DNA of 64,000 nucleotides from an uncultured Acidimicrobiaceae bacterium (GTDB lineage: Bacteria > Actinomycetota > Acidimicrobiia > Spongiisociales > UBA5794), in NCBI GenBank assembly GCA_964416425.1, contig CAYQEC010000001.1, forward strand, positions 149,696 to 213,695. Direction: 5' to 3'. A program made the position numbers and the translations under genes. The notes below the pieces were generated by a model. The model saw nothing but the letters and a program-made list of their open reading frames with translations, was not told the DNA's origin and ran no database searches. Shown here piece after piece: positions 37,698 through 64,000 of this stretch (positions are counted from its first letter, which is position 1; the number at the start of each line of letters is the position of its first letter).

Positions 37698-38180
37698 ATG
37701 GGTATGGGCAACGAGTTCAACTTCCGCCAGAAGCCCCGCGGCCTTTTCAAGTGGCTGCTGCACGCCCCGGTGTGGATCTTCCGGGCCCGCCTCGGCTTCC
37801 TGCTCGGACGGCGGATCGTGATGCTGGAGCATCGCGGCCGCAAGAGCGGGCGCCTGCGCCGGACCCCACTCGAGACCGTGCATCGGCAAGGTGACACCTA
37901 CGTCCTGTGTTCCGGCACCGGCCGGAAGGCCGACTGGTATCGCAACCTCCAGGCCCACCCGGCCGAGGCCCTCTGGGTCGGGGCGAAGCGGTTCCCGGTC
38001 GCCCAGCGCTTCCTCGACGACACGGAGGCGGCGGCGGCATTCGCCACCTACGAGGCGGCGCATCCCAAGGCGGCCGGGCGCCTCACCGAGATGATGAGGG
38101 TGTCCTACGACGGGGCCGACGCCGGCCGCGTCGCCATGGTGGCGCAGATCCCGGTGGTGGAGCTGACGCTGCAGCGGTAG
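37698..38180 (+). CDS. F420H2-dependent (Ddn-like) nitroreductase family protein
   Basis: [16 protein letters not shown] and [10 protein letters not shown] motifs. Confidence 0.88.
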
Positions 38181-38188
38181 CGGGAGGC

Positions 38189-39061
38189 CTAGGGCGCCGC
38201 CGGATCGCGGTCGGAGGCACCCAGCCCGGCGGGCAGGGTGGGCCGCGAGGCGGATCGCCCGCCGGCCACTTCGACCACCTTGGCCGCCCCGAAGCCGAGG
38301 CCGAGCACCGCCGCTCCCCCGGCGGCGTCGAGCCAGAAGTGGTTGGCGGTCACCACGATCACCCACAGCGTCAGCCACGGGTAGACGGTGATCGCCGCCC
38401 GTGACCAGCGGTGACCGAGCCGGTGGCGCAGCGCGAAGAACGCCCACGAGGCCCAGGCGAAGTGGAGCGAGGGCATGGCGGCGTACTGGTTGGAGATGCT
38501 CTGCATCGTGCCGGAGTCGAACGACCAGAGCCCGCCGATGGAGGCCAGGCTGTCGACGTAGTGGTACTGCCCGAGACAGGCCCCATAAGCGCCGCAGTCC
38601 GGAAGGAGCCGGGGTGGCATCAGCGGGTAGAGCACGTAGACGACCAGGGCGAGCCCGGTGGTGAACGCCAGCGTGTTGCGCCACAGCGGGTAGTCGGAGC
38701 CGAAACGGCGGTAGAGCCACACCAGTACCCCGGCCGTCACGACGAAGTGCAGCGTGCCGTAGAGGATGTCCCACAGCTGCATCAGTACCCGGGCGCCGGC
38801 GAAGGCAAACGTCAGCCCGCCGCCGGAGGAGCTGACGAACCAGCCTTGGATCGTCGGCTCGTGGTAGAGCCCGAAGAAGCGCTCGATGTCGATGACCCTC
38901 CGGGCGTTGGCGAGGGCCTCGTCGGGAGAGACGGCCGCCGACCCGAAGTGGTTGCGGATGTACGAGTACACCAGGTAGAAGGCAAGGGCGTACAGCACCT
39001 CCCGCCACCACCACCTCCGGTTCGGCTCGGCGGCGGGGTACGTGTCGGGGCTGGGGATCAT
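38189..39061 (-). CDS. PAP2_3 / Aur1-Ipt1-like membrane phosphotransferase
   Basis: YPLMPPRLL, AAMPSLHFAW and ANHFWLD catalytic motifs; multiple TMs. Confidence 0.85.
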   Translation of the reverse strand: MIPSPDTYPAAEPNRRWWWREVLYALAFYLVYSYIRNHFGSAAVSPDEALANARRVIDIERFFGLYHEPTIQGWFVSSSGGGLTFAFAGARVLMQLWDILYGTLHFVVTAGVLVWLYRRFGSDYPLWRNTLAFTTGLALVVYVLYPLMPPRLLPDCGAYGACLGQYHYVDSLASIGGLWSFDSGTMQSISNQYAAMPSLHFAWASWAFFALRHRLGHRWSRAAITVYPWLTLWVIVVTANHFWLDAAGGAAVLGLGFGAAKVVEVAGGRSASRPTLPAGLGASDRDPAAP

Positions 39062-40050
39062 CCGACCGGTTCCCGGCCGAAGCGGCGGCGGGCGCCGAAG
39101 GCGTAGGACGGTGCCCCGAGCAGGCTGGTGACGGCGGTCATCGCCCACACGACGAGGCCGAGGGCGATCGCCTGGGCCTGCAGCACCCCGACGCTACGGA
39201 GCAGCCAGACGAGCATGAACTCGCGGACGCCGAGTCCCGAGATCGACACCGGGAGGACCTGGGCGATGAGCACGGCCGGGAAGAAGGCCATCATGGCGGT
39301 GAGGCCGACGTTGATGCCGAGCGCCTGGGCCGTCATGAAGGCCGCCATCACCAGCACGAGCTGGTAGACGAACCCGGCCCCGATCACCAGCAACATCGCC
39401 CGGGGACGGTGGCGGAGCCGGACGATCCCGAGGTGAATAGCGTCGATGAACCGCTGCCAGCCTGCCCGGCCCGCGAACCGGCCGCCGAACCGCTTCACCG
39501 CGGCGGCGGTCAACAGCATCATCAGCAGCACCAGGGTGGTGGCGGCGATGAGCAGGGCGATCTTGGTCTGCGCCCCCAGGCCACGAAGCACCGGGTTGAG
39601 ACCGAAGCCGAGCAGGGTGATGAGGGGAAGCACCACCCATCCGGTGAGCCGATCGAGCACGACGCTTGCGAACGACGACGGCGAGTCCCCGGTGTCGCGG
39701 GCGAGGCGGGCCACCCGCACCACGTCCCCGCCGATGGTGGTGGGAAGGGCGTTGGAGAGGAACTGACCGGCGAGGAAGTGCGAGAGCAGCCGCCCGAAGC
39801 CGTCGTGCAGATCCAAGGCGCCGACGACCTGCCGCCACCGCACGGTGGAGAGCATGAAGCTGCCGATCAGCATGAGGGCGGCGCCCGCCATCCACGCCAG
39901 GCGCACCGTGGTCAGCCGCGGGATCACCCGGGAGGGAGAGAACTCGTCCCCGAGGCGCAGGAACAAGAACCAGAGCAGGCCGGAACTGAGCGCCACCCGA
40001 AGCGGCGTCGCCCAGTGCCTCCCGAAGCCCTCTCGAATCCGTATCGTCAC
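39058..40050 (-). CDS. Lysylphosphatidylglycerol synthase TM-domain (UPF0104, flippase-like) protein
   Basis: RWRQ, FLSNALPTTIGGDVVR, VVLDR, LPVSISGLGVRE motifs; ATGA overlap with the PAP2 gene. Confidence 0.85.
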   Translation of the reverse strand: MTIRIREGFGRHWATPLRVALSSGLLWFLFLRLGDEFSPSRVIPRLTTVRLAWMAGAALMLIGSFMLSTVRWRQVVGALDLHDGFGRLLSHFLAGQFLSNALPTTIGGDVVRVARLARDTGDSPSSFASVVLDRLTGWVVLPLITLLGFGLNPVLRGLGAQTKIALLIAATTLVLLMMLLTAAAVKRFGGRFAGRAGWQRFIDAIHLGIVRLRHRPRAMLLVIGAGFVYQLVLVMAAFMTAQALGINVGLTAMMAFFPAVLIAQVLPVSISGLGVREFMLVWLLRSVGVLQAQAIALGLVVWAMTAVTSLLGAPSYAFGARRRFGREPVG

Positions 40051-40212
40051 CGCACAGCCCTCTCGTCGTCTCCACGCCACGACAACGTCGGCCATGCGCC
40101 CGCGGGCCCGTCGCCCCTCTGCCCTGGGGGACCGATGGTATCTTCCACTCTACCGGGCCTGCGACTTGTGCCACCTCGAATCACCTTCCCCGTGCGGCGC
40201 GTCGTGGCGAGA

Positions 40213-41123
40213 TCACCCTGCGGGAAGGGCGCCTTCGGCTTCGAGGATGGCCCGTGCTAGATGCTGGCGTGCCTGCGGGTCGATCTGGCTCGCCACTTCC
40301 GGGTCCGTCTCGAGATCGATGTTGAGGGCGAATACCCAGGTGTCGGCGTCACGCTCTGCGATGCCAACCAGCCAGCCGACCTGCGGACTTCCCGACATCA
40401 CCGTTCCCGTCTTGTGCGACCAGGCCCATCCGGGACCCGATTCTCGCACCAGGATGTCGCGCACCGCCCGCACCACGCTGTCGTCGAATGGGAGATCGCC
40501 GTCGACGAGGCGAGTGAGGAAGTCGATCTGCTCCAGGGCGCTGATGCGGAGATCGCCGTCCAGCCAGAAGCGCTCGATCGGTCCGTCGATGTCACCGTTG
40601 CCGTAGTCGGCGGCGGTCACCCACTGCTGCATGGCCTCCCGCCCCACCTCGCGGGCCATGGCCGAGTAGACCCATACCGCCGACACTTCGATGGCGGTGC
40701 GGAGACTGTGGTCGCGGTTCCATACCTCGAGACCCCGATCGACGCCGTCCCACTTCACCATGGTGTCGACGTCGGGGAGGATGCCCGTCTGGAGGATGAT
40801 GAGGCTGTTGAGGATCTTGAACGTCGAGGCGGGAACGAACGGGGTCTCGGCTCGGCCCCGGTCGTGCACCTCGACCACGTCGCTCCCGATGCGGTGGAGG
40901 GCGAAGGTCCCGACCAGGCCCTCGGCTGCGAAGAAGCTCGCCCGTCGGGCCGCTCCTCGATGGCGAACTCAGGGAGGGCAGCATCGGTTCCCGTCTCGTG
41001 CTGCGCCGAGGGTGCGGCGGTGGTGTCGGGATTCGAGCCGGTCGATGGGGTCGTGCAGCCGGCGAGCAGCGACGCCGCCAAGCCAAGCCCGAGCCTCCAC
41101 CCCAACATCCGTCGCGCTGTCAC
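40213..41123 (-). pseudogene. Class D (OXA-like) beta-lactamase lipoprotein with an apparent 1-nt deletion near 40944
   Basis: STFK, SAV, YGN and KTG motifs in 40213..40878; the LLAGC lipobox lies in a different frame upstream; inserting one base restores ERPD(W)ASFFAAEGLVGTF. Confidence 0.8.
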
Positions 41124-41188
41124 GGGCGCCATCCTACGGACGGATGCCCAATAGTCGTCTCGCGGCGATCCCGGCCGGGACCGGCGGC

Positions 41189-41767
41189 TCAGCGGCCGGC
41201 GGCGGCCGGTGCCGGGCGACGGACCTGGGAACGGCTGAGGGCGCGCTTGCCCACCAGGATCCGGTACAGCGTGAGGAAGGTGACCGCGACGATGCTGCCG
41301 ATCGTTGCCGTCACATACGCCGGGTTGGAGGCGTCGGTGCCGGCGGTGGCGCCATGGAGCGCCGCCATCCAGAACAGCACGTAGCTGGTGAGGTGAACGG
41401 CGTGCCAGGCCTTGCGCGGCAGGTGCTTCATCATGAGCGAGGTGACCTCGACCGCCACGAGCAGGTAGAACGCCACGACGCCCCACGCCACCGCTCCGGT
41501 GCGCCAGGTCGTGGCGAACGGCACCAGGAGGTCGGCGACGCCGAAGTGCACGTAGTTGTCGGCGACGAGGCCCGCCAGGTGCATGCCCACGAAGACCACG
41601 GTGATGCCACCCAGGTAGCGGTGCAGGTCGAGCAGCCAGCGCGGGCTGGGCTTGCGGTCGAGCAGGCGGGTCGACAGCAGCAGTCCCCAGATGACCGAGA
41701 GCGAGGCGAGCCCCCAGGCCACGATGCCGCTGGAGCGGGCGACGTACCACCAGAACTGCGAACTCAT
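41189..41767 (-). CDS. Ferric reductase-like (MsrQ-like) transmembrane heme-binding protein
   Basis: WWYVARSSG, DLHRYL, MHL, WHAVH, LHG: conserved TM histidines; no cytosolic FAD/NADPH domain. Confidence 0.85.
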   Translation of the reverse strand: MSSQFWWYVARSSGIVAWGLASLSVIWGLLLSTRLLDRKPSPRWLLDLHRYLGGITVVFVGMHLAGLVADNYVHFGVADLLVPFATTWRTGAVAWGVVAFYLLVAVEVTSLMMKHLPRKAWHAVHLTSYVLFWMAALHGATAGTDASNPAYVTATIGSIVAVTFLTLYRILVGKRALSRSQVRRPAPAAAGR

Positions 41768-42657
41768 GCCGCCACCTGCCCGAACCCGGCGCTGCAGCGG
41801 ACTCGCCCGTCGCCGGCGACGACGACCGCTTCGGCGTTGATCAGGCCCTCGAGACCGGAGGCGAACACGACTTTCGTCATGGCTTCCGCCCACCAACCTT
41901 CGGAGGCGACGGTGGTCACGGTGGCCACGTCGCCCCCGAAGGAGGCACCCGACCTCGGATCGATGAGATGGTGCACCGTCTCGCCGCCGCGCACCCAGCT
42001 GCGTCGCAGCCGGCTGCTGGTGGCCACGGCACCGTCGGTGAGGTGGACGCGCGTCAATTCGGCGGGCGGATCGAACGGATCATCGACCCCGATCGACCAC
42101 ACCGCACCGCGGGGCGGCCGGCCGGCGACCCGGACGTCGCCGCCCAGGCTCACCATGGCTCCGGCGGCGCCGACGGCGAGCAGCTCGCGGACGACGATGT
42201 CGGCGGCGAGGCCCTTGCCGATGCCCCCGGGATCGATGGTGACGCCGCCGGGGAGCAGGACCGACGAGGTGGCCGGATCGGTCTCGATCCCGCCACATCC
42301 GGGGGCGGGCATGAGGACCGGCGGGGCGGCGTCGGCGGAGGCGTCGATCAGCTCGAAGCTGCGGTCGTAGCCGCTCGCCAGCAGGGAAGACAGCACGGTG
42401 GGGTCGAATGCCCCCCCGGTCACCTGCCAGGCATACACCGCCCGGGTGATCAGGTCGTAGGTCTCCGGCGATACCGCGATCGGCCGGCCCGGCATGCCGT
42501 TCAGCAGCGACAGCTCACTGTCGGGCCGGAACCGGCTCCAACGCGCCTCGAGATCCTCGATCCGCTCCACGGCGGCGGTGGCGAGCGCCTCGGCCCCGCC
42601 GACGACCAGCAGATGGGCGTCGCAGCCCATGGCCCGGAAGCGGCGTTCAGCTTCCAC
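41764..42657 (-). CDS. apbE: FAD:protein FMN transferase (ApbE/Ftp), no signal peptide
   Basis: FRAMG, WSRFRPDSELS.LN, FDPT, IDPGGIGKG, SLGGD, ATS, HHLIDPRSG motifs. Confidence 0.92.
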   Translation of the reverse strand: MEAERRFRAMGCDAHLLVVGGAEALATAAVERIEDLEARWSRFRPDSELSLLNGMPGRPIAVSPETYDLITRAVYAWQVTGGAFDPTVLSSLLASGYDRSFELIDASADAAPPVLMPAPGCGGIETDPATSSVLLPGGVTIDPGGIGKGLAADIVVRELLAVGAAGAMVSLGGDVRVAGRPPRGAVWSIGVDDPFDPPAELTRVHLTDGAVATSSRLRRSWVRGGETVHHLIDPRSGASFGGDVATVTTVASEGWWAEAMTKVVFASGLEGLINAEAVVVAGDGRVRCSAGFGQVAA

Positions 42658-43105
42658 GGCTGCGGGTGACCGGCTTCGGCGCCGGGGCGACGGCGGTCGG
42701 TTGGGGATCGACGGGCGGCGGGGTCGTCACGTTGGTCACCGGGTTGGCCTGGCGCAGGGTGGCGGCCCCGCCGCTGGAGGGAACTCGCACGAACCTGAGG
42801 TGGACCACCCCGTCCTGCGGGGCCGGCAGCGCCGGGATGGTGACCGGGTCCGGGGCGGGCGCCGGGGCCGCCGAGCCGGCCTGCACGGCCGCCTGGGTCC
42901 ACATCGAGGAGACGAGCAGGGTGGCGCCGGCGACGCTGCCGCTCAGTGTCAGCATCCGGCTGCGGCGGGCGACATGCTGCTTCGGGACGCCGCGGGACGG
43001 CGGCTTCCGGCCCACCACGACCGGGGCGTCGGTTCCCCGGCCGGCCGCGGGCGCGGATCGGCGCTGCTGCAACTGCTCGATGCGGCGCCGCTGCTCCTCA
43101 GTCAT
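42647..43105 (-). CDS. Small exported/membrane-anchored Pro/Thr-rich protein (RR-containing signal, C-terminal TRSRGS)
   Basis: Basic N-region, ARRSRML plus hydrophobic stretch plus AVQA, low-complexity tail; overlaps apbE start. Confidence 0.65.
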   Translation of the reverse strand: MTEEQRRRIEQLQQRRSAPAAGRGTDAPVVVGRKPPSRGVPKQHVARRSRMLTLSGSVAGATLLVSSMWTQAAVQAGSAAPAPAPDPVTIPALPAPQDGVVHLRFVRVPSSGGAATLRQANPVTNVTTPPPVDPQPTAVAPAPKPVTRSRGS

Positions 43106-43463
43106 CGTCTTCGGCTCCCTCGTATTGCTCGTGCTCCCACCCGTCGTCCTCGTGACCTTCCTGCTCGTACTGGTCGTCCTCGTAGGAGACCGGGACGGCA
43201 TCGGAGACGGTGGCCGTCGGAACGGTGGTCACCGGCGCCGGGTCGGCGGGCAAGGTGGAATCCGGAACGTAGATGGTCACGTAGCGGTCGGGAGCGGGGG
43301 CGAAGGTCGTGGTCGTCTCGACCTGGTCGGGAGCGAGGGTCCCGACCCCGTCCCCGGGCGGCTGCCGGAGCAGGCCGAGGTTCACCACGAGAGCCGAGGC
43401 GGCGGCCACCACGGTCAGCGCCGCGGCACCGGCCGAAGAGACGAAGGCTTGGCGGATCCTCAT
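43098..43463 (-). CDS. Small exported protein with acidic/His-containing C-terminal tail
   Basis: Signal/TM MRIRQAFVSSAGAAALTVVAAASALVVNLG; tail EDDQYEQEGHEDDGWEHEQYEGAEDDD; overlaps the next gene. Confidence 0.7.
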   Translation of the reverse strand: MRIRQAFVSSAGAAALTVVAAASALVVNLGLLRQPPGDGVGTLAPDQVETTTTFAPAPDRYVTIYVPDSTLPADPAPVTTVPTATVSDAVPVSYEDDQYEQEGHEDDGWEHEQYEGAEDDD

Positions 43464-43540
43464 GGAACTGGCTCCTTGGGTCGGGTCTTGATCCTGCCAC
43501 TCACCGTAGAGTGGGCCGGTACAGCACTCGATCCGGCTCG

Positions 43541-43562
43541 GGCAAAGGTTCGGCAAAGATTC
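43541..43562. promoter_or_regulatory. Tandem 11-bp direct repeat, probable OmpR-family response-regulator site
   Basis: GGCAAAGGTTC GGCAAAGATTC in the divergent spacer between the apbE operon and the response regulator. Confidence 0.65.
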
Positions 43563-43594
43563 CGAACCGCCCTCGGGGCCCGTTGGGACGCCAC

Positions 43595-44260
43595 ATGGAC
43601 CTGCTGGTCGTCGAGGACGACGACGCGATCGCCGAACCTCTCGTCGACGGTCTCCGTCGCGAGGGGTTCGAGCCCCGGCGCGTCTCGACCGGCCGGGCCG
43701 CCCTCGAGACGGAGCCCGGCGACTTGGTGTTGCTCGACCTCGGGCTCCCCGACATCGACGGCAAGGACGTGTGCCGGGAGCTGCGGCAACGCTCCCAGGT
43801 GCCGATCATCGTCATCACCGCCCGGGGCGACGAGGTCGACCGGGTGGTGTTGCTCGAGCTCGGCGCCGACGACTACGTCGTCAAGCCGTTCGGATTCCGG
43901 GAGCTGGTGGCGCGCATCCGCGCCGTGCTGCGGCGCACCACCGGCAGCGCCGCCGAGGATCCTTCCGGGGCCGTCGAGCTCGCCGCCCTGGCGATCGACC
44001 GCCGGGCGCGGCGGGTCACGTTGGAGGGCCGGGAGCTGCAGCTCACCCCCAAGGAGTACGACCTGCTCGCCTTGCTCGCCTCCGAGCCGGGGGCGGTGTT
44101 CACCCGCGAGGAGATCATGAGCGAGGTGTGGGACGAGCACTGGTACGGCCCCACCAAGACCCTCGACGTCCACATGGCCTCGCTCCGCAAGAAACTGGGG
44201 GACCCCCGCTGGATCACCACGATCCGGGGCGTCGGGTTCCGCCTCGAGGAACCGGGATGA
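43595..44260 (+). CDS. OmpR-family response regulator
   Basis: LVVEDD, LLDLGLPDIDG, GADDYVVKPF, winged helix with TLDVHMASLRKKLG and TIRGVGFR. Confidence 0.95.
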   Translation: MDLLVVEDDDAIAEPLVDGLRREGFEPRRVSTGRAALETEPGDLVLLDLGLPDIDGKDVCRELRQRSQVPIIVITARGDEVDRVVLLELGADDYVVKPFGFRELVARIRAVLRRTTGSAAEDPSGAVELAALAIDRRARRVTLEGRELQLTPKEYDLLALLASEPGAVFTREEIMSEVWDEHWYGPTKTLDVHMASLRKKLGDPRWITTIRGVGFRLEEPG

Positions 44261-45642
44261 CACGGCGCCTCCTCGGCACCTACCTCACCATCACCGGGTT
44301 CGTCCTGGTCGTCCTCATCATCCCGCTCGGGCGAACCTTTGCCGCCAGGGAGGAGGACCGGCTCATCTCCGCCATCGAGCGGGACGCCACCGTGGTCGCC
44401 AGCATGTCGGAGGAGGCCCTCGAGGACGGGACGTCACTGGGCCTCGACGGGCTCCTGCAGCGCTACGCGATCGATCCGGGAGGCAGGATCGTCATTGTCG
44501 ACGCAAGGGGTATCAGCGTGGCGGACTCCGACAATCTCGGCGGACCACCCCGCGACTTCGCCACCAGACCCGAGTTCGTCCAAGCCCTCGCCGGAAGGGT
44601 CGACCGCGGCATCCGATCCTCCGAGACCCTCGGGAGGGACCTGATCTACGTGGCCGTCCCCACCGGATCGGGGGGCAGCATCGTGGGCGCGGTCCGCATC
44701 ACCTACCCGGCGACCACGCTGCAGGATTCGGTGCGCGACAACTGGCTGCGGCTGGGCGTGCTCTCGCTGGTGGTGCTGGCGGCGGTCACCCTCGTCGGGT
44801 TCGCCCTGGCGCGGAGCGTGACCCGGCCGGTGCGGGCCCTGGAGCGGACGGCGGCGAGCCTGTCGGCGGGTGACCTGTCGGCGAGGGTGACGGTCTCCGG
44901 ACCACCCGAGATCAAGGAGCTGGGCCGCACCTTCAACGAGACGGCCGACCGGCTCCAGGCCTTGATCGACTCCCAGCGTGGCTTCGTCGCCGATGCCTCC
45001 CATCAGCTCCGCACTCCGTTGACCGCGCTCCGCCTCCGCCTCGAGAACCTGCGGTACGCGGTGGACGCCGAGGATCTGTCGGCGGTGGAGGCGGCCCTCT
45101 CCGAGACCGGCCGCCTCACCCGGCTCGTCGACGGGTTGCTCGCCCTGGCCCGGGCCGAGGCTCAGCACGCCCCGGGGGAGGTGGTCGACCTCGCCACGAT
45201 CGCGGCGGGCCGCACCGAGGTGTGGGAGCCGCTCGCCTCCGACGGGGGTGTCACGATCGCCACCGAGCTGCCGGCGGCCGCCCCGGCCCGGATGGTGCCC
45301 GGCGCCACCGAGCAGATCCTCGACAACCTGATCTCCAACGCTCTCGACGCCACCCCGGAGGGGAAGCGGATCACGATTGCGGTCGTCCCCGCCGGGGACC
45401 TGTGGGAGCTCCACGTGTCGGACGAGGGCCCCGGGATGAGTGACGAGCAGCGGGCCGGCGCCTTCGACCGGTTCGCCTCGGGGAAGGCGGGAAGGGGAAC
45501 CGGGCTCGGTCTCAGCATCGTTCGCCAGCTCGCCCGTTCCGGCGGTGGGGACGCCCGCCTCCTGCCGTCCCCCAGCGGGGGCCTCGACGCCGTGGTGTCG
45601 CTCCCGGCGGCCACCGGCCCGGCACCGGCACCGGGAGACTGA
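44257..45642 (+). CDS. Sensor histidine kinase (Cache-like sensor, HAMP, HisKA, HATPase)
   Basis: Two TMs; ADASHQLRTPLT H-box, NLISNA, DEGPG, GTGLGLSI; ATGA overlap. Confidence 0.95.
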   Translation: MTRRLLGTYLTITGFVLVVLIIPLGRTFAAREEDRLISAIERDATVVASMSEEALEDGTSLGLDGLLQRYAIDPGGRIVIVDARGISVADSDNLGGPPRDFATRPEFVQALAGRVDRGIRSSETLGRDLIYVAVPTGSGGSIVGAVRITYPATTLQDSVRDNWLRLGVLSLVVLAAVTLVGFALARSVTRPVRALERTAASLSAGDLSARVTVSGPPEIKELGRTFNETADRLQALIDSQRGFVADASHQLRTPLTALRLRLENLRYAVDAEDLSAVEAALSETGRLTRLVDGLLALARAEAQHAPGEVVDLATIAAGRTEVWEPLASDGGVTIATELPAAAPARMVPGATEQILDNLISNALDATPEGKRITIAVVPAGDLWELHVSDEGPGMSDEQRAGAFDRFASGKAGRGTGLGLSIVRQLARSGGGDARLLPSPSGGLDAVVSLPAATGPAPAPGD

Positions 45643-45699: not shown

Positions 45700-45704
45700 T
45701 GGAG

Positions 45705-45778
45705 TGGAGGTGACGGGATTTGAACCCGTGACCCCTTCGTTGCGAACGAAGTGCTCTGCCGAACTGAGCTACACCCCC
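45705..45778 (-). tRNA. tRNA-Ala(CGC)
   Basis: GGGGGTG/CACCTCC acceptor stem with the G3:U70 Ala determinant, anticodon arm CTTCG-TTCGCAA-CGAAG, GGTTCAAATCC T-loop. Confidence 0.93.
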
Positions 45779-46975: not shown

Positions 46976-47464
46976 TCACGAGTGATCTGCATTGTGGTCT
47001 GATTGCGCCGCTATCACCAACTCGACGCCGTGCATGAGCGCCGGACCGATCACTGCCAGCGACTCCTCGACGCCACGGACCGAACCCGGGAGGTTGATGA
47101 TCAGCGTCCGGGACGCGATGCCGGCCACGCCGCGGGACAGCATGGCGAAGGGGTTCTCGGCGCAGGCGGCGGAGCGCATCGCCTCAGCGAGTCCCGGCGC
47201 CCGGCGCTGCACGACCAGGGTGGTGGCCTCCGGGGTGAGATCGCGGGGGGAGAATCCGGTGCCGCCGGTGGTGACGATCAGCGACACCTCGTCGATGAGC
47301 ATGCGGAGGGCGTCCCGCACCGACTCGACCCCGTCCGGCACCACGCGCTGCTCGCTCACCTGGAAGCCGATCTCCTCCAGCGCCGCGACCGCCGCCGGTC
47401 CCGACTCGTCTTCGGCCTCACCGCGCGTCACCCGGTCGCTCACCGTGATCACCGCAGCTTTCAT
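46976..47464 (-). CDS. mog: MogA/MoaB molybdopterin adenylyltransferase
   Basis: VITVSDR, TTGGTGFSPRDLTPEA, SRGVAG, INLPGS motifs. Confidence 0.92.
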   Translation of the reverse strand: MKAAVITVSDRVTRGEAEDESGPAAVAALEEIGFQVSEQRVVPDGVESVRDALRMLIDEVSLIVTTGGTGFSPRDLTPEATTLVVQRRAPGLAEAMRSAACAENPFAMLSRGVAGIASRTLIINLPGSVRGVEESLAVIGPALMHGVELVIAAQSDHNADHS

Positions 47465-47931
47465 CTCCGCCACCTCCCCGAGCGTCCACCGCTCTTCTCG
47501 AGCAATCGCACCGGCCCGATCTCGGCACCCCGATCCAGGCCTTTCACCATGTCGTAGAGCGTGACCGCTCCCAACGCCGCCGCCGTCATCGCCTCCATCT
47601 CGACACCCGTCCTCGCCTGGGTACGCGCCGTCACCTCGACCCGGGCGCCGGTGTCGATCGGTTCGATCGCCACCTCGACGGCGTCGAGGGGAATCGGATG
47701 GCACAACGGCACCAGCGACGACGTCTGCTTCGCCCCCATGATGGCCGCAACCCGGGCCACCGCCACGGCATCTCCCTTGGGGAGGTCGCCGGCGAAGAGC
47801 CGGTCCCGCACCGCCGGGGTGAGAGTGATGACCGCCTCGGCGACCGCCACCCGCACCGTCGGCTCCTTGCCGCCGACGTCGACCATCCGGGCCCGGCCCT
47901 GCTCGTCGAGGTGGGTCAGGTCGTCATCCAC
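47461..47931 (-). CDS. moaC: Cyclic pyranopterin monophosphate synthase
   Basis: LTHLDEQGRARMVDV, LVPLCHPI, TGVEMEAMT, YDMVKG motifs. Confidence 0.95.
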   Translation of the reverse strand: MDDDLTHLDEQGRARMVDVGGKEPTVRVAVAEAVITLTPAVRDRLFAGDLPKGDAVAVARVAAIMGAKQTSSLVPLCHPIPLDAVEVAIEPIDTGARVEVTARTQARTGVEMEAMTAAALGAVTLYDMVKGLDRGAEIGPVRLLEKSGGRSGRWRR

Positions 47932-49165
47932 CGAGTGCCTCCTCCCTGGTGCGGGTCTCGGGGCTTCCGAATAGCTCGAGGTCGACCGGGGCACCCGCCG
48001 CCAGCGCCGCCACGCCGACCGGGACCACCGCGAACGCGTCGGCGGCCGCCATGGCGGACTGGACGTTGGAGCCTTGGGCGCCGCTGAGCCGGGCGTGGAG
48101 GCGCCCGTCGCCGCCGTCGGCGGTGACCGCCACCCGCAGGAACACCGTCTTCTCGGGATCGGTGCGGACGTCGCCGTCGAGGATGCCGGGGACCCTGGGC
48201 CGGAAGAGGCGCGCCGCCCCCATCATCGCCAGCAGCGCCGGGCGCAGGAACTGCTCGAAGGACACCACCACCGACACCGGGTTCCCGGGAAGCCCGAAGA
48301 ACGGGGTGCCCCCCAGGTTCCCGAAGGCGAACGGCTTGGCGGGCTGCATCGCCACCCGCCAGAAGTCCACCGTCCCGAGCAGGGCGAGCTCGCTCTTGAC
48401 CAGGTCGTATTCCCCCATCGAGACCCCGCCGCTGGTGACCACGGCGTCGCTGTTGGCGGCGGCGTGGCCCAGCACCCGGTTGAGGACGGTGGCCTCGTCG
48501 GGGACGATGCCGTGGTCGATCACGACGGCCCCCAGCTCCTCGATGAGGCCCCGCAGCAGGAACCGGTTCGAGTCCCGGATCTTGCCGGGAGCGAGATCGG
48601 CCGTCTCGGCCGGCACCAGCTCATCGCCGGTGGAGAGGATGGCGACCCGGGGCCGCCGCCGCACCTGCGGCGTCGCGACGCCGAATGAGGCGCAGATGCC
48701 GAGACGGGCCGGGGTGAGCCGCACCCCGGCCGGGAAGACCTCGAACCCGGCGGTCACGTCCCCGCCGGCGGGACGCACCGCAGTCCCGGCGGGTATCGCC
48801 ACCAGGATCCGGACCTCGCCGTCGCCCGGCTCGGTGTCCTCGACCTTCACCACCGCGTCGGCTCCGTCCGGGAGCGGGGCGCCCGTCATGATCTTGATGG
48901 CGGTTCCCCCCGTGACCGGTTGCGACGGCACCCGGCCGGCGGGCACGTCCTCCAGCACCGGGAGCGTCACCGGGGCGGCCGCCACGTCGGCGGCCCGTAC
49001 CGCGTAGCCGTCCATCGCCGAGTTCGGGAACGGCGGGAGGTCGTGGGGCGCCACCAGCGGCACCGCCAGCGCCAAGCCGCGGGCTTCCCGCAGCGGCATC
49101 GCCACCACCGGCAGCGGCTTCATCGCGTCGAGCACGGCCCGCTGAGCGTCGGCCAGCGGCTTCAT
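47924..49165 (-). CDS. moeA: Molybdopterin molybdotransferase
   Basis: PPFPNSAMDGYAVR, IMTGAPLP, STGDEL, SGGVSMGEYD, GLPGNPVS motifs. Confidence 0.95.
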   Translation of the reverse strand: MKPLADAQRAVLDAMKPLPVVAMPLREARGLALAVPLVAPHDLPPFPNSAMDGYAVRAADVAAAPVTLPVLEDVPAGRVPSQPVTGGTAIKIMTGAPLPDGADAVVKVEDTEPGDGEVRILVAIPAGTAVRPAGGDVTAGFEVFPAGVRLTPARLGICASFGVATPQVRRRPRVAILSTGDELVPAETADLAPGKIRDSNRFLLRGLIEELGAVVIDHGIVPDEATVLNRVLGHAAANSDAVVTSGGVSMGEYDLVKSELALLGTVDFWRVAMQPAKPFAFGNLGGTPFFGLPGNPVSVVVSFEQFLRPALLAMMGAARLFRPRVPGILDGDVRTDPEKTVFLRVAVTADGGDGRLHARLSGAQGSNVQSAMAAADAFAVVPVGVAALAAGAPVDLELFGSPETRTREEALGG

Positions 49166-49743
49166 ATTCCCTCCACCGTCTGCTCGCTTCCCCCGAGAAG
49201 CCGCCGGATGTTGGGGGCGTGGCGCCAGATCACGAGCAGAGCCGCCACCGCGGCCCACACCAGGGACCAGCCACGATGCCCGAAGAGGGCGAAGCCGGGG
49301 ACGTAGGCGACCATCGCCACCAGCGAGGCCACTGAGGCGGTCTTGGTGACGGCGACGATCCCGACCCACACCAGCGCCGTCCCCAGCCCGAACCAGGGCT
49401 CGAGCCAGATGGCGGCGCCGATGGCGGCGGCGACGCCGCGGCCTCCCCGGAAGCGATGCCACAGCGGGAACACGTGACCGACCACCGCCGCCAACCCGCA
49501 GGCGAACCCGACCGCCTCGCCAACCCAGAAGTCGCCGACGGCGGCAGCGAGCATGCCTTTGACGACGTCGCCCACCATCACCGCCGCCCCGGCCTTCCTG
49601 CCGACCGAGCGCAGCACGTTGGAGGCGCCGGGGTTTCCGCTCCCCCGGGTGTAGATATCGATACCGGCAAGTCGGGGCACGATCACCCCGAAATCGATGC
49701 TTCCCAACAGATAGGCGGCGGCGAGAGCGACGAATGTTTCCAA
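49162..49743 (-). CDS. plsY: Glycerol-3-phosphate acyltransferase
   Basis: YLLGSI.FG, GSGNPGASNV.R, DVVKG, GHVFP, FRGGRGVA, WRH..NI.RL..G.E; TTG start 8 nt after a TAGACT -10. Confidence 0.92.
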   Translation of the reverse strand: METFVALAAAYLLGSIDFGVIVPRLAGIDIYTRGSGNPGASNVLRSVGRKAGAAVMVGDVVKGMLAAAVGDFWVGEAVGFACGLAAVVGHVFPLWHRFRGGRGVAAAIGAAIWLEPWFGLGTALVWVGIVAVTKTASVASLVAMVAYVPGFALFGHRGWSLVWAAVAALLVIWRHAPNIRRLLGGSEQTVEGI

Positions 49744-49850
49744 GGGGTCCGAGTCTAGAAGCGGGACGGCCCGGCCCGGAACAGCGGGCAACAACGAAGG
49801 GTGACCAAGAAAGCAACCACGAGTGACGGTGTCCTCACTACACTCCGGCA

Positions 49851-59901: not shown

Positions 59902-60063
59902 GGGACCAGGCTAGCGGTCGAGGCGCCACGCCCGGATTACCCGGCCACCGTCTCCGGCGCATAGGGTTGGCGACAGCACCACATCGGGCAGGAGCGACCC
60001 GGGCCTGCTTGACTCTCCGGCCCGGGCTCCGGCTCCCCCCACCCGCGACCGAGGAGCAGCATC

Positions 60064-60432
60064 GTGAAATACTCCGACCCCACCACCCAGCTCGTCGTCG
60101 AGGTGTCGGTGCGCGATATGCAGGTGTCGCTCGACTTCTACCGCGGCCTCGGCTTCGAGGTGCTGCGCGACAGCGACGAGTTCTCCGTGCTCGCCTGGGA
60201 GGGCCACCAGCTCTTTCTGGTGCACCGCCCCGACTTCGAGCCGCCCGAGGCCGAGCACGCCAACCTGCGGGTGCTCGTGCCCGACGTCGACCACCACTGG
60301 GAGGCGGCCCAGGAGCGGAAACTGCGGATCGTCACCCCCATCGGCGACCACGACTACGGGCTGCGCGACTTCACCGTCGCCGACCCCGACGGGTTCGGGG
60401 TGCGATTCGGCACCTGGCTCCACGACCTCTGA
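60064..60432 (+). CDS. VOC/glyoxalase family protein
   Basis: VRDMQVSLDFYRGLGF, VPDVD, DYGLRDF.VADPDG; GAGGAG RBS. Confidence 0.9.
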   Translation: MKYSDPTTQLVVEVSVRDMQVSLDFYRGLGFEVLRDSDEFSVLAWEGHQLFLVHRPDFEPPEAEHANLRVLVPDVDHHWEAAQERKLRIVTPIGDHDYGLRDFTVADPDGFGVRFGTWLHDL

Positions 60433-60453
60433 GCCTCCAAAGCGACGCCCGAA

Positions 60454-60543
60454 TCAACCCATGGCGCGGTGCAGGAACGCCGCCATCTGACCCCGGCTCA
60501 CGTAGGCGTCGGGACAGAACATGGTGTTGTCGGGCGGGTTGCC
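60454..60543 (-). pseudogene. Relic C-terminal S-layer homology (SLH) repeat
   Basis: Reads GNPPDNTMFCPDAYVSRGQMAAFLHRAMG*; upstream frames do not continue SLH-like sequence. Confidence 0.7.
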
Positions 60544-61008
60544 CACCGAAGAGCGCATAGCTGGCGGCGTCGGAGGCAGTGACCTTACCGTCGAACACCC
60601 AACCGCTCCCCAGAGGCCAAGGTCACAGAAGATCCCGAGAACGCCGTGGTTCGCACATCTCGGCGCCGCGGCATGCCCGGTGATCCCGAGGAAGCCGCCA
60701 CCCCACTACCCTCCGGTCAGACGGCAGGATCCATCTTGCGCGGCTCCGACCCGCCCCCGTAGCTGAGAACGCGCTCCACCAAGCGTCGTCCGGAGGCCGC
60801 CCAGCCGAAGCCTACGAACGCGCCTGGATCGCCGATCGCCTCGCTGAACCGCCGGGGTTCGCGTGTGCCCCGAAGCGCGAAGGGCGTGGGCGGTCGCTGA
60901 CCTCCTCACGATCGATTCGGGCTTTGTCGGTGGGCTCAACGACTCTCACCACGACTCCAGGTCTAGAGTTATCGCTTTCAGGTTGGATGCTCGTGGTTCG
61001 GGGGTTCG

Positions 61009-62358
61009 GTGGATACCGATTCGGAAATGGCGTTGCGTGGAGAGATACTCTCTCTGACCCGCCGGTTCGCCGAACTTGCCACGGCAACACGCCCATTCCG
61101 GGCCGGGTTTGATCCGGTACCCGTTTCCGGGAAGGTCCTCGGTCCGTCCGACTTCGAGGCGCTGGTCGACGCAAGCCTCGACGGCTGGTTCACCGCGGGC
61201 AGATTCACCGAGGTCTTCGAGCGTGATCTGGCCACATTTGTGGGATCTCGATTCGCACTGATGGTGAATTCGGGATCGTCGGCAAATCTCCTCGCTCTGA
61301 CAGCGCTGATGAGTCCCAAACTCGGAGATCGCCGACTGAAGCCCGGAGATGAAGTCATCACGGTCGCCGCCGGATTCCCGACGACGGTCAACCCTATTGT
61401 CCAGAACGATCTCGTTCCCGTATTCGTCGACATCGAACTAGGCACCTATGGCCCATTACCCGACGCCCTTGAAGCTGCGATCGGACCCCTCACGAAGGCC
61501 GTCATGATCGCCCACACTCTCGGCAACCCTTTTGATGCTTCTGCCGTACGCGAACTGTGTGACCGACATGGATTGTGGATGGTTGAGGACACCTGCGATG
61601 CGTTGGGGGCAACCTTCGATGGCCGGAACGTGGGAACTTTCGGCGACACTGCGACGCTCAGCTTCTACCCGGCACACCACATCACAACCGGCGAGGGCGG
61701 CGCTGTAATGACGAATCGGCCCGCTCTGCGGAGAATCCTCGAGTCGTACCGTGACTGGGGTCGCGATTGCTACTGCCCTCCCGGTCATGACAATACCTGC
61801 AAGAAGCGGTTCGAGTGGCAGTTGGGTGATCTGCCTTTCGGCTACGACCACAAGTACATCTACAGCCATATCGGCTACAACCTCAAAGCAACGGATATGC
61901 AGGCTGCCATCGGCTCCAGCCAGTTGAAACGCATCGACGAATTCGTCGCAAAGCGTCGTGAGAATTTTTCGATACTCGACGGGTTCCTCTCCGGAACCGA
62001 CGAACTGATTCTTCCAACAGCAACACCGGGGTCGGAGCCCAGTTGGTTCGGCTATCCGATCACGCTTCACCCAGAGTTTCCGATTCAGAGGGTTGACCTT
62101 CTTCGATTCCTCGATCACCGAAAGATCGGAACGCGCCTGCTCTTCGGCGGCAACCTCTTGCGCCAGCCTGCTTACCAGGGCCTGCCATCTCGGGTCGTGG
62201 GCGATCTCAGCAACTCCGATGTTGTCACAGCAAGAACCTTCTGGATTGGCGTATATCCGGGCCTGTCGCATGAGATGCTTGAGTTCGCGGCGTCATCGAT
62301 CAAGGAGTTTCTGACCGATCCCGGAGCGGCCTCGGAACGGCCTGTTCTCGGATTGTGA
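61009..62358 (+). CDS. rfbH: CDP-4-keto-6-deoxy-D-glucose 3-dehydrase (E1)
   Basis: [35 protein letters not shown] (His replaces the PLP Lys), RDCYC..G.DNTC Fe-S motif, LFGGNL. Confidence 0.93.
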
Positions 62359-62444
62359 ACTCGATACACAGAACGCTGCGTCAGGCGTGAGCAGTTCATG
62401 ATGACTGACGGTTCGAAAGTGGATAGCTGGGGAGAAAGGGGCAT

Positions 62445-63215
62445 ATGAGAACGATCATTCTTGCGGGTGGGCTTGGTACCAGACTCAGCGAAGAGACGGG
62501 CACTCGGCCGAAGCCGATGGTCACCATCGGTGGGAAGCCGATGCTGTGGCATATCATGAGCATCTACGCGGCACACGGACACCGAGACTTCGTTCTGGCT
62601 CTTGGGTACAGGGCCGAGATCGTCAAGGAGTACCTCCTGAATCTGAGGTACTTCGATTCCGATTTCACGGTAAGCACGTCATCACACGATGTGACGTTGA
62701 TCGGAGATCGGCGAACCAACGATTGGAACGTCACTGCGGCGAACACGGGGGGTGAGACTCAGACCGGTGGCCGGATCCTCCGAGCCGCCGCCACGTTCGA
62801 TGACGACGTCTTCATGGTCACCTATGGCGATGGTGTCGCGAATGTCGACATCGGTGCTCTCGTCGAGTTCCACAGAGCGCACGGTCGTCTGGCAACGGTC
62901 ACCGCAGTCCACCCGCCTGCACGATTCGGACGTCTCGAACTCGACGGCGACTCTGTCGTGCGCTTTGGGGAAAAGCCACAAGCCGAAGGGGGCTGGATCA
63001 ATGGCGGATTCTTTGTTCTGAACCGATCGGCACTCGACTACATCGATGGTGACGAGTCCGTATGGGAACGAGGCCCTCTCGAACGTCTCGCCGCCGATGG
63101 CGAACTGCACGCATTCTTTCACTCGGGATTCTGGCAGCCAATGGACACCCTCCGCGAACGAATGATCCTCGAAGATCTCTGGCGCACCGGCGCAGCGCCA
63201 TGGAAGGTCTGGTAG
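62445..63215 (+). CDS. rfbF: Glucose-1-phosphate cytidylyltransferase
   Basis: LAGGLGTRLSEET..RPKPMV, TGGETQTGGRI, TYGDG, WINGGFF, GFWQPMDTLRE motifs. Confidence 0.95.
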   Translation: MRTIILAGGLGTRLSEETGTRPKPMVTIGGKPMLWHIMSIYAAHGHRDFVLALGYRAEIVKEYLLNLRYFDSDFTVSTSSHDVTLIGDRRTNDWNVTAANTGGETQTGGRILRAAATFDDDVFMVTYGDGVANVDIGALVEFHRAHGRLATVTAVHPPARFGRLELDGDSVVRFGEKPQAEGGWINGGFFVLNRSALDYIDGDESVWERGPLERLAADGELHAFFHSGFWQPMDTLRERMILEDLWRTGAAPWKVW

Positions 63216-63217
63216 CA

Positions 63218-64000
63218 GTGACCGCTATCGCAGTTGTTGGTGCGACTGGATACATCGGGCGTTCCGTTTGCTCGACTGCGAGAGACAGCGGCTGGAGTGT
63301 GGTCACCTGCAATCGATCCGGAGTAGTGAATGCGTGGCCCGAACTCTCTCGAGGATCGATCGACGCGGTTGTGAACTGTGCCGGCGCCGGAATGAACTCC
63401 CAAGAGAAGTTGTCGAGCGTTGACTTGCTGGATGCGAATCTCGTCGTACCGCTCGCCGCTGCGAACTTGGCCCTGCGGATGGGCAGTCGGCTCGTACAGA
63501 TCGGAACCGCCGCCCAGCAGTCCGAGCGGCTTATCGCCGACTCGCCGTACGTTCGATCAAAGCACCTCGCTTCCGGTGCTCTTCGTCTCATCGCTGAGGC
63601 CGACGGGCTTGGCGTGTACGAGTTGAAGCCTCATATCGTCTACGGAGGAGTGGATTCTCCCGGTGTCGTGAATGCAATGGTCAGATCGATCGTTGCGGGG
63701 ATTCCCTTCCCTCTACGAACTCCGAACGTGACGCGAGATTTCATTCACCGAGACGATGTCGCCAGAGCTGTGGTCGCGGCCATCGAGGCCCGAGCGCCGG
63801 CGTGGGCGTCGCTTGAGATCGGTACCGGCGTGGGCTACAAGTTGAGCGACGTGGCGACCATGATCGGGAAACTCGCCGGTGCGTCCGAAGCATGGAGCTT
63901 GGACCCTGGGCCCGGCCGACCGTGGGTCGAGGACCTGGTAGCAGACCCGCGCCCCGCAATGACAAGTCTGGGATTCTCTGCCGAGATTCCGCTCCGACAA
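63218..64000 (+). CDS. Extended-SDR NAD-dependent epimerase/reductase (candidate CDP-dideoxyhexose 4-reductase); runs off the right end
   Basis: Manual translation from GTG 63218 is open to the end: VVGATGYIG, VVNCAG, YVRSK (YxxxK), VYG, RDFIH.DDVA, IGTG. Absent from the ORF track (no stop codon in window). Confidence 0.85.
   Translation, partial: MTAIAVVGATGYIGRSVCSTARDSGWSVVTCNRSGVVNAWPELSRGSIDAVVNCAGAGMNSQEKLSSVDLLDANLVVPLAAANLALRMGSRLVQIGTAAQQSERLIADSPYVRSKHLASGALRLIAEADGLGVYELKPHIVYGGVDSPGVVNAMVRSIVAGIPFPLRTPNVTRDFIHRDDVARAVVAAIEARAPAWASLEIGTGVGYKLSDVATMIGKLAGASEAWSLDPGPGRPWVEDLVADPRPAMTSLGFSAEIPLRQ

Follow-up and report, generated by a model that had tools for sequence, protein, structure and literature searches.

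ApbE flavinylation, the transfer of flavin mononucleotide (FMN) to a protein, is a major route for extracytoplasmic electron transfer. Here we describe a six-gene module that carries an ApbE and lies in a 64,000-nt (64-kb) stretch of DNA from an uncultured Acidimicrobiaceae bacterium (contig CAYQEC010000001.1 of assembly GCA_964416425.1); "the window" refers to this whole stretch. The module consists of a response regulator (RR), a sensor histidine kinase (HK), two small proteins that we call A and B, the ApbE, and a ferric-reductase-domain (FRD)-like membrane cytochrome. We consider it highly probable that the module is a regulated outward electron-transfer system, and we lean slightly towards the view, reached by sequence comparison, that the C-terminal tail of B is the substrate of the ApbE.

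The closest described systems are the MsrQ-like clusters (Meheust et al. 2021, PMC8238504; Huang et al. 2024, PMC11334425), which also have a two-heme cytochrome of Pfam family PF01794 beside apbE, are common in Actinobacteria, occasionally have VIT1 as a neighbour, and have been proposed to carry out outward electron transfer or iron reduction. However, they are defined by a signal-bearing ApbE or an FMN-bind or DUF protein, typically with an FMN-bind gene. In the module described here, the ApbE is always signal-less and there is no FMN-bind, DUF2271 or DUF3570 protein; instead there are A and B, both small and predicted to cross the membrane once, and a two-component system of the module's own. 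Relatives of the module with a fused cytochrome also carry a 2Fe-2S domain that is additional to what MsrQ-like clusters have. The module is functionally like the MsrQ-like systems, yet it falls outside their operational definition.

The engineered flavin-tag (Tong et al. 2021, reviewed in PMC12052999) resembles what we propose for B, in that a short, unstructured terminal peptide ending in Ser/Thr suffices and is modified in the cytoplasm by a signal-less ApbE. Its motif, however, is D-x-x-[S/T]-G-A-[S/T], whereas the B tail reads P-V-T-x-[S/T]-x-[G/A]-S, lacks Asp and only rarely has Gly at position -2. The Klebsiella pneumoniae ApbE that serves a soluble NADH:fumarate reductase (PMC12052999) likewise has no signal peptide and uses cytoplasmic flavin adenine dinucleotide (FAD), but such cytoplasmic ApbE systems act on cytoplasmic enzymes with a folded FMN_bind domain, whereas here the partners would be an exported disordered tail and a membrane cytochrome. 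The FmnB/PplA system of Listeria is a parallel from another Gram-positive envelope: its extracytoplasmic carrier is flavinylated, tethered to the membrane and fed by a membrane component, and FmnB Arg262 is conserved in the ApbE described here. It differs in that FmnB is an extracytoplasmic lipoprotein needing exported FAD, PplA has folded FMN-bind domains, and the donor is Ndh2 with quinone rather than an FRD cytochrome. Finally, NOX, STEAP and MsrQ proteins share the bis-His pattern of the cytochrome and resemble its predicted fold, and its fused relatives are NOX-like (membrane, FAD and NAD(P)H domains); the actinobacterial form differs in having only five predicted helices, no MsrP partner, and an xGxD motif after the last His that is characteristic of the subfamily.

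An earlier note, made from the sequence alone, had placed four overlapping genes divergent from an OmpR/HK pair, and this layout proved correct: A, B, apbE and the cytochrome gene overlap on the minus strand, and the RR stop overlaps the HK start (ATGA) on the plus strand (coordinates are in the table). The G+C content at third codon positions (GC3) is 0.86-0.95 across all six genes (0.86 for gene A), as expected of real genes in this genome; the window is ~70% G+C overall. The stretch is present in many salt-marsh metagenome runs, and its nearest genomic relatives are Acidimicrobiaceae metagenome-assembled genomes (MAGs), with 86% ApbE identity.

Genomes were scanned with the ApbE and metagenomes with the cytochrome; the metagenome scan gave at least 556 relatives, from which 80 loci were taken (loci are referred to by L numbers where needed). 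The module is found in more than 60 independent loci of Acidimicrobiia, other Actinomycetota (Actinomycetes, Solirubrobacterales) and Chloroflexota, with the conserved order (RR-HK)-A-B-ApbE-FRD, and its cultured hosts include Amycolatopsis, Saccharomonospora, Blastococcus and Geodermatophilus. Wherever the contig was long enough, the ApbE gene was directly upstream of the cytochrome gene.

The ApbE matches PF02424 with 176 bits (cut-off 25.6) over residues 10-271, and its closest relatives in the PDB are TM1553 (1vrm, 9e-26) and Listeria FmnB (7esa, 1e-25), followed by 4xdt and 6nxi. The reference catalytic centres are Ser241/His257/Asp285 in the Vc enzyme and Ser257/His273/Asp301 in FmnB. 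Ser214, His230 and Arg219 of the window ApbE align with FmnB Ser257, His273 and Arg262, and the acidic residue of its triad is Glu258, opposite FmnB Asp301. A stop interrupts its reading frame 27 codons upstream, and between that stop and the GTG at MEAERRF there is no other start codon. The protein thus begins at the start of its catalytic domain, with no possible signal peptide or lipobox. Among 55 related loci with an upstream in-frame stop, no possible N-terminal extension contains a hydrophobic 12-mer (0/55), and in 43 the longest possible extension is at most 30 residues; the Amycolatopsis and Saccharomonospora enzymes begin at MGS(T/D)AH. The earlier note's description of a signal-less ApbE is therefore borne out, in the window by the upstream stop and in all 55 loci by the lack of a hydrophobic extension. 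The same evidence rules out an upstream extension with a hidden signal peptide, which the note had named as a danger to its reading, and a frameshifted B-ApbE fusion. We regard it as strongly supported that the window ApbE is cytoplasmic and has an intact active site, and FMN transfer is its predicted activity.

Neither A nor B has a match in Pfam, NCBIfam or the PDB sequences, the window operon is devoid of FMN-bind, DUF2271 and DUF3570 domains, and there is no FMN_bind match among the genes called around Pfam-annotated relatives. Nor do A and B show a domain of the other known ApbE substrates, NqrB/RnfD and flavinylated flavodoxin or FMN reductase. The operon thus has no recognisable FMN-binding domain substrate, as the earlier note had said. 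B consists of a basic N-terminal region, one Gly/Ser/Ala-rich membrane helix, a Pro/Ala-rich tether and the end PVTRSRGS. It can barely be aligned beyond close relatives: its length is 77-152 residues in most genomes, and the Pro/Ala/Thr-rich stretch that follows the helix is ~36 to more than 200 residues long and can include pure (AP)n runs. A beta-strand motif of the type VVVIRRHxV is found in 35 of 44 B proteins. The AlphaFold2 (AF2) model of B, built from a shallow alignment, has a pLDDT of 55 and no folded domain; apart from a helix at the N-terminus, its one structured element is a hairpin spanning 104-120. Net charge is +3 to +9 over the 25 residues that precede the membrane helix (0 in two B proteins cut by a contig end) and -7 to +3 over the 25 that follow it. 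About 10 residues before the helix is a juxtamembrane element, [RK][RK]xH[PA]A..[SA]R, which has a near-invariant His, is found in most lineages (including the ApbE-less Streptomyces B), and may contact the inner face of the cytochrome.

The one Ser/Thr motif that is universally conserved in B is at its extreme C-terminus. Of 47 distinct B proteins, 43 have [S/T]-x-[G/A]-S no more than three residues from the end; among six-frame open reading frame (ORF) ends in the same loci, the background is 4.3%. The conserved C-terminus that the earlier note had asked homologs to show is thus there, in this form. The full motif is P(-7) V/A(-6) T/A(-5) x S/T(-3) x G/A(-1) S(0), after which at most two residues come before the stop. 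Counted over the 43 tails that match [S/T]-x-[G/A]-[S/T], position -7 is P in 33, -6 is V (18) or A (7), -5 is T (25) or A (12), -3 is S (24) or T (19), -2 is R (13), S (12), H (6), G (4), N (3) or K (2), -1 is G (34) or A (9), and 0 is S in 42 and T in 1. Set against the canonical D-x-x-[S/T]-G-A-[S/T], the tail agrees at -3, -1 and 0, and some variants are canonical-like: TSGAS (L068), SGGS and TGGS.

Two other explanations of Ser/Thr motifs in B were tried and rejected. The tail could be a by-product of the overlapping ApbE start, but the motif is also kept in loci whose B stop precedes ApbE by 11-65 nt and whose sequence in the ApbE frame is different, so selection acts on the protein B. 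The second candidate was an internal motif (SSGGAAT in the window; ASGAT/SSSGAT in L003 and L016), but only 6 of 44 B proteins have a canonical motif after the beta-strand, and the window copy sits in the hairpin turn of the AF2 model.

A literature search for this tail or module found nothing, and neither did a search of the PMC8238504 supplement yield anything useful on Acidimicrobiia clusters. To our knowledge, a conserved, ApbE-linked tail at the extreme C-terminus of a disordered, exported mini-protein is previously undescribed. All ApbE substrates that we know of have their motif within a folded domain. Published work does provide grounds for considering such a substrate: a seven-residue motif is sufficient for ApbE and performs best at the end of a protein, flavinylation drops by only half on G->A or A->V changes in the motif, and cytoplasmic ApbEs exist (all PMC12052999). 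Genomes with an orphan apbE also imply undiscovered substrates (PMC8238504). That large survey dropped ApbE and FMN-bind genes without a signal peptide, so this tail variant would have escaped it.

Loci with and without ApbE were compared to test its link to the tail. In three of four ApbE-less operons (the Streptomyces and Pilimelia rows of the table), A-like and B-like genes precede a reductase-fused cytochrome; the B-like proteins there have lost the tether and tail but retain their basic N-terminus, helix and beta-strand. No two-component system was seen adjoining the modules in these three loci. Counted by locus, ~50 ApbE-containing loci have the tail and 5 do not, compared with 1 and 3, respectively, of the ApbE-less loci (Fisher p = 0.006). 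This points to B being made of two parts, an ApbE-independent core and an ApbE-linked tether with its tail.

Gene A encodes a protein with an N-terminal signal/anchor helix, a linker with the beta-strand motif YVTIYVPD, and a polyanionic C-terminus that is rich in D/E/H/Y and ends in YEGAEDDD. This architecture recurs in most loci, with the tail [YHF]EGx[DE]DDD. The gene is otherwise variable (e.g., L064, L070, L079 and L037), and some lineages insert a beta-rich domain of ~90 residues, with no Pfam match, before the acidic tail. Tandem A paralogs occur in some lineages, and in Streptomyces erythrochromogenes the C-terminus of the A-like protein is Lys/Gly-rich, not acidic. A PepSY domain suspected in gene A of a Chloroflexota locus (L011) was dropped, as it has no Pfam match even at E = 0.1. 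One 1.1-Mb ENA contig (L095) reads A, B and the end of the kinase as a single 392-aa frame; this is likely a long-read indel and is topologically inconsistent (it would invert B), so it was not used.

The cytochrome matches PF01794 with 29.2 bits, which is marginal over the 28-bit cut-off, and its homologs carry a precomputed PF01794 match. Its two His pairs, H49/H63 (H-x13-H) and H125/H138 (H-x12-H), are invariant in alignments of 7 and 33 sequences and are the predicted bis-heme ligands on two membrane helices. These four residues are the heme-type histidines seen earlier in this membrane protein. Five membrane helices are predicted, not six; Chloroflexota homologs have a sixth at the N-terminus. 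After H138 comes an xGxD motif (AGTD), and the C-terminus is basic and predicted to be cytoplasmic. The AF2 model has a pLDDT of 88 and a pTM of 0.82, and its top Foldseek matches are DUOX1, SpNOX, STEAP1, NOX2 and NOX5 (TM-score 0.56-0.61, probability ~1.0, E-values only 0.05-0.4). We consider it strongly supported that the protein is a ferric-reductase-domain cytochrome b with two predicted hemes and a cytoplasmic C-terminus.

The window cytochrome is stand-alone, with no dehydrogenase domain, as first reported. In cultured Actinomycetes, however, close relatives are fused at the C-terminus to FAD_binding_6, NAD_binding_1 and Fer2. These fusions place the C-terminus in the cytoplasm and make NAD(P)H the donor in the fused species, so electrons flow outwards, and the predicted NOX/STEAP-like fold also backs this orientation. 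No MsrP (YedY) partner molybdoenzyme was seen in the operon, either in the window or in the more than 60 loci, and the database names "YedZ" and "MsrQ" on homologs are annotation transfers. The family is large (4,947 word-index matches, and 5,615 clusters at 50% identity in a profile search) and abundant in soil and sediment Actinomycetota, including culturable genera.

We propose that the six genes form a two-component-controlled system for electron export in which FMN is attached to B in the cytoplasm before B is exported by Sec or YidC. It is our best overall explanation, and its chances of being right in full are about even. The ApbE, translated from a start that overlaps the B stop, would transfer FMN from cytoplasmic FAD to the last serine of the [S/T]-x-[G/A]-S tail, making the tail a natural minimal flavin tag. 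B's last residues leave the ribosome only at termination, and in so short and unstructured a protein the tail would then be free in the cytoplasm. Modification is placed before export because the acceptor residue ends outside while the ApbE is inside. Post-translational insertion of small membrane proteins is documented (PMC7549839). Flavinylation followed specifically by Sec export is the less certain part, and we rate it as somewhat less likely than not. As for the bulk of the cargo, SecYEG reportedly tolerates large conjugates.

Once outside, the FMN on its Pro/Ala tether of ~40 to more than 200 residues would shuttle electrons from the outer heme to an acceptor, and the His/Tyr/Asp/Glu-rich polyanionic tail of A may concentrate a metal cation, most likely Fe(III). 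The electron donor in the window organism would be encoded elsewhere, as menaquinol or a separate reductase. We lean towards Fe(III) as the acceptor, given the polyanionic tail of A, the VIT1 and Nramp neighbours, the salt-marsh origin and the published association of MsrQ-like clusters with iron uptake (PMC8238504), and NOX-like oxygen reduction may be an alternative function. The earlier note's picture of a stripped-down outward electron-transfer system with a tethered carrier thus survives in part: the reductase-fused relatives support outward flow and VIT1 or Nramp genes lie nearby in two genomes, whereas its export route does not hold up (see below). The boldest version, that B is the first natural "flavin-tag" protein, carrying FMN on its terminal Ser before Sec export and swinging on a long tether between the outer heme and extracellular acceptors across the Gram-positive wall while a polyanionic partner gathers metal, is one that we rate as rather unlikely.

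Several points weigh against this proposal. The tail is not the canonical [S/T]GA[S/T], with Gly at -2 in only 4 of 43 cases, and four ApbE-linked B proteins have off-pattern tails (VTSPSG, IRTRTS, HTGSSKP). An ApbE-less metagenomic operon (L036) keeps the tail, an ApbE operon (L006) has no B, and the ApbE-less cases are few and phylogenetically clustered. A and B are predicted to be single-pass with the N-terminus inside and the C-terminus outside, a topology taken from charge bias only. The window has no separate FNR-like reductase gene that could point to the cytoplasmic donor, and what we propose for the terminal acceptor and for the function of A is guesswork. We also know of no precedent for cytoplasmic flavinylation followed by Sec export.

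The departure from the canonical motif and the tail in L036 would also fit with B not being the ApbE substrate at all. The target could then be elsewhere or be the cytochrome itself (e.g., the Thr of AGTD), or the ApbE could be an Ftp-like FAD pyrophosphatase that supplies FMN to a non-covalent site; A and B would be structural or docking proteins, and the tail would be used for docking, O-glycosylation or proteolytic recognition. ApbE-family FAD pyrophosphatases are known (PMC4767422), and the motif AG[T/S][D/E] is nearly invariant and lies beside the outer heme. The hydroxyl of that loop is, however, replaced by Ala or His (AGAD, SGAD, AGHD) in ~12 of 137 representatives, and the motif persists in the ApbE-less Streptomyces operons. 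The polytopic cytochrome is also inserted co-translationally, with the loop facing outwards, beyond the reach of a cytoplasmic ApbE. We therefore judge it an unlikely ApbE target; the motif more probably serves to dock heme or flavin than to be flavinylated. For B, by contrast, the tail co-varies with ApbE, most loci couple the B stop to the ApbE start, and the operon has no other conserved candidate. On balance, a B that is not the substrate seems unlikely to us, though it deserves serious consideration.

How B leaves the cytoplasm is a separate question, and it is here that the earlier note fares worst. It had read ARRSRML at the N-terminus of B as a twin-arginine signal, and proposed that B is flavinylated in the cytoplasm and exported by twin-arginine translocation (Tat). 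Tat is the usual export route of cofactor-carrying proteins, 29 of 44 B proteins have an Arg-Arg pair at most 12 residues away from the hydrophobic segment, and that segment is Gly/Ser/Thr/Ala-rich and moderately hydrophobic, as is typical of Tat signals. However, the pair is not conserved: the nearest relatives of the window have ERSR, QRSR or KSR, and in B of cultured strains (Saccharomonospora, Geodermatophilus) the N-region is 7-12 residues long with a single Arg. Where present, the pair lies within the [RK][RK]xH[PA]A..[SA]R element, usually 8-10 residues from the hydrophobic core and with another charged residue between, and there is no S/T-R-R-x-F-L-K consensus. We therefore consider the Tat route very improbable and keep export by Sec or YidC in our proposal.

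Pfam finds Response_reg and Trans_reg_C in the RR (receiver and winged helix) and HisKA and HATPase_c in the HK, which is the domain content of the OmpR/PhoB two-component family. Assignment does not go further than this: the RR reaches no NCBIfam equivalog (CreB, MtrA and CseB are all below their cut-offs), and the HK scores under every equivalog cut-off. Orthologs of the RR (60-92% identity) and of the HK adjoin the module in ~20 long loci. The pair is mostly divergent from the module but is sometimes co-directional, as a single unit RR-HK-A-B-ApbE-FRD.

In the divergent promoter region between the RR gene and gene A is a direct repeat, CTTTGCC-N4-CTTTGCC, which has this one match in the 64-kb window (0.1 expected by chance) and is kept as (C/G)YTT(G/A)CC-N4-(C/G)YTT(G/A)CC in at least 10 orthologous intergenic regions. 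About 32 nt downstream of it is a -10-like hexamer that belongs to an invariant T-A-x-G-x-T block in the alignment. In L064, L070 and L079, the gene-A ATG comes only 7 nt after the -10-like box, and this suggests that gene-A transcripts are leaderless in those loci. No FMN or other riboswitch was found in the window, and no RNA-seq runs containing the operon were listed. Because RR and HK orthologs adjoin the module and the promoter repeat is conserved, two-component control, as the earlier note had assumed, is well supported; the RR would act by binding the repeat, with the HK sensing a substrate, a product or the redox state.

The tight co-conservation of RR and HK orthologs with A-B-ApbE-FRD, in either orientation and including single operons, would also be expected if the module were mainly sensory, with A and B as ligands or modulators of the HK, and with the cytochrome and flavin setting a redox signal rather than carrying bulk flow. 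The extracytoplasmic domain of the HK, which weakly resembles dCache, fits this as well. Many relatives, however, fuse the cytochrome to a full NAD(P)H/FAD/2Fe-2S reductase, which implies sustained electron throughput, and there are metal-transporter neighbours. The sensory features are also compatible with electron export through a flavinylated B, as the HK may merely regulate the system. A mainly sensory role thus seems improbable.

If our proposal for B is right, ApbE would gain a new substrate class, one whose motif is relaxed, and with it a wider substrate range. The proposal would also establish a "modify inside, export afterwards" route, in which the flavin is attached before Sec and no FAD export is needed, and would give at least some of the genomes with an orphan apbE their missing substrate. 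The ~8-residue tail and its cognate enzyme would then be a compact natural part with uses in protein labelling and in bio-electrochemical engineering. Should B turn out not to be flavinylated, the six genes would still form a redox module that is conserved, regulated and equipped with a defined promoter box.

Table. Positions of the module, its neighbours and selected related loci (window positions count from the first base of the 64-kb stretch).
Feature	Locus	Coordinates	Strand	Description
Four-gene run	Window	43463-41189	-	Genes A, B, ApbE and FRD-like cytochrome
Gene A	Window	43463-43098	-	121 aa; AAGGAG ribosome-binding site
Gene B	Window	43105-42647	-	152 aa; ATGACTGA overlap with A
B membrane helix	Window	~42899-42955	-	B residues 51-69
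B juxtamembrane element	Window	~42956-42990	-	[RK][RK]xH[PA]A..[SA]R
B tail codons	Window	42650-42673	-	P-V-T-R-S-R-G-S; candidate flavinylation site
ApbE	Window	42657-41764	-	297 aa; GTG start; 11-nt overlap with the final codons of B
FRD-like membrane protein gene	Window	41767-41189	-	192 aa; ATGA overlap with ApbE
RR	Window	43595-44260	+	221 aa; OmpR/PhoB-type; divergent from A
HK	Window	44257-45642	+	Two membrane helices, extracytoplasmic domain, HAMP, HisKA, HATPase_c (Pfam)
Direct repeat	Window	43541-43558	-	CTTTGCC-N4-CTTTGCC; putative RR box
-10-like hexamer	Window	43503-43508	-	TACGGT (TANNNT)
Lipoprotein gene	Window	40219-41132	-	LAGC lipobox; PBP-transpeptidase/class-D beta-lactamase-like domain; split across two frames near 40942
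PAP2_3 phosphatase-like, LPG_synthase_TM and F420H2-dependent quinone reductase-like genes	Window	38189-40095; 37698-38180	-; +	LPG_synthase_TM is the lysyl-phosphatidylglycerol synthase membrane region
tRNA-Ser(CGA) call	Window	43610-43707	-	98 nt; ARAGORN
tRNA-Ala(CGC)	Window	45704-45778	-	ARAGORN and Rfam (69.6 bits)
Molybdenum-cofactor cluster	Window	46976-49816	-	MoCF_biosynth/MoaB-like, MoaC and MoeA-like ORF; ~1.3 kb beyond the HK
Atypical end	Window	60001-64000		G+C falls from ~0.70 to 0.63 to 0.60
Module, Blastococcus sp.	L096			RR-HK-A-B-ApbE-fused cytochrome; tail ...TTTSRAS
VIT1 gene, Blastococcus sp.	L096	2597-3292		Directly upstream of the module, with its own RR-HK pair
Module, Amycolatopsis benzoatilytica	L098			RR-HK-A-B-ApbE-fused cytochrome; tail ...ATTSRAS; assembly GCA_000383915.1
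Module, Saccharomonospora amisosensis	L101			RR-HK-A-A'-B-ApbE-fused cytochrome; tail ...VSTSHAS; assembly GCA_011761185.1
Tandem A paralogs	L101	2211-2877
Nramp gene, Saccharomonospora	L101	7260-8495		1.7 kb downstream of the module
Tandem A paralogs	L046	3323-4578
Module, Geodermatophilus sp.	L102			A-B-ApbE-fused cytochrome; HK upstream, no RR seen within the locus; tail ...TTSSHAS
Module, Nocardioides MAG	L100			A-B-ApbE-fused cytochrome-RR-HK; tail ...AESGGSE
ApbE-less module, Streptomyces erythrochromogenes	L097	6063-8659		B end ...DTVPSR, no tether
ApbE-less module, Streptomyces sp.	L103	3088-5641		B end ...ELRTSS, no tether
ApbE-less module, Pilimelia terevasa	L099	4549-6590		B stops just past the helix
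Single 392-aa frame	L095	6928-8106		A, B and kinase end

Just downstream of the operon, the lipoprotein gene with a beta-lactamase-like domain is broken: residues 1-63 of the intact ortholog in L001 match frame -3 of the window, and residues 65-305 match frame -2. It is either a frameshifted pseudogene or an assembly error. Beyond it, away from the operon, are the phosphatase-like, LPG_synthase and quinone reductase-like genes, and in L002 an LPG_synthase gene is directly 3' of the cytochrome gene.

On the other side, the tRNA-Ser(CGA) called within the RR coding sequence has no Rfam report at the gathering score and is probably a false positive. The tRNA-Ala(CGC) is genuine and convergent, 62 nt past the HK stop, with the molybdenum-cofactor genes further on. 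At the far end of the window, the last 4 kb have a lower G+C content and may be foreign or otherwise atypical DNA.

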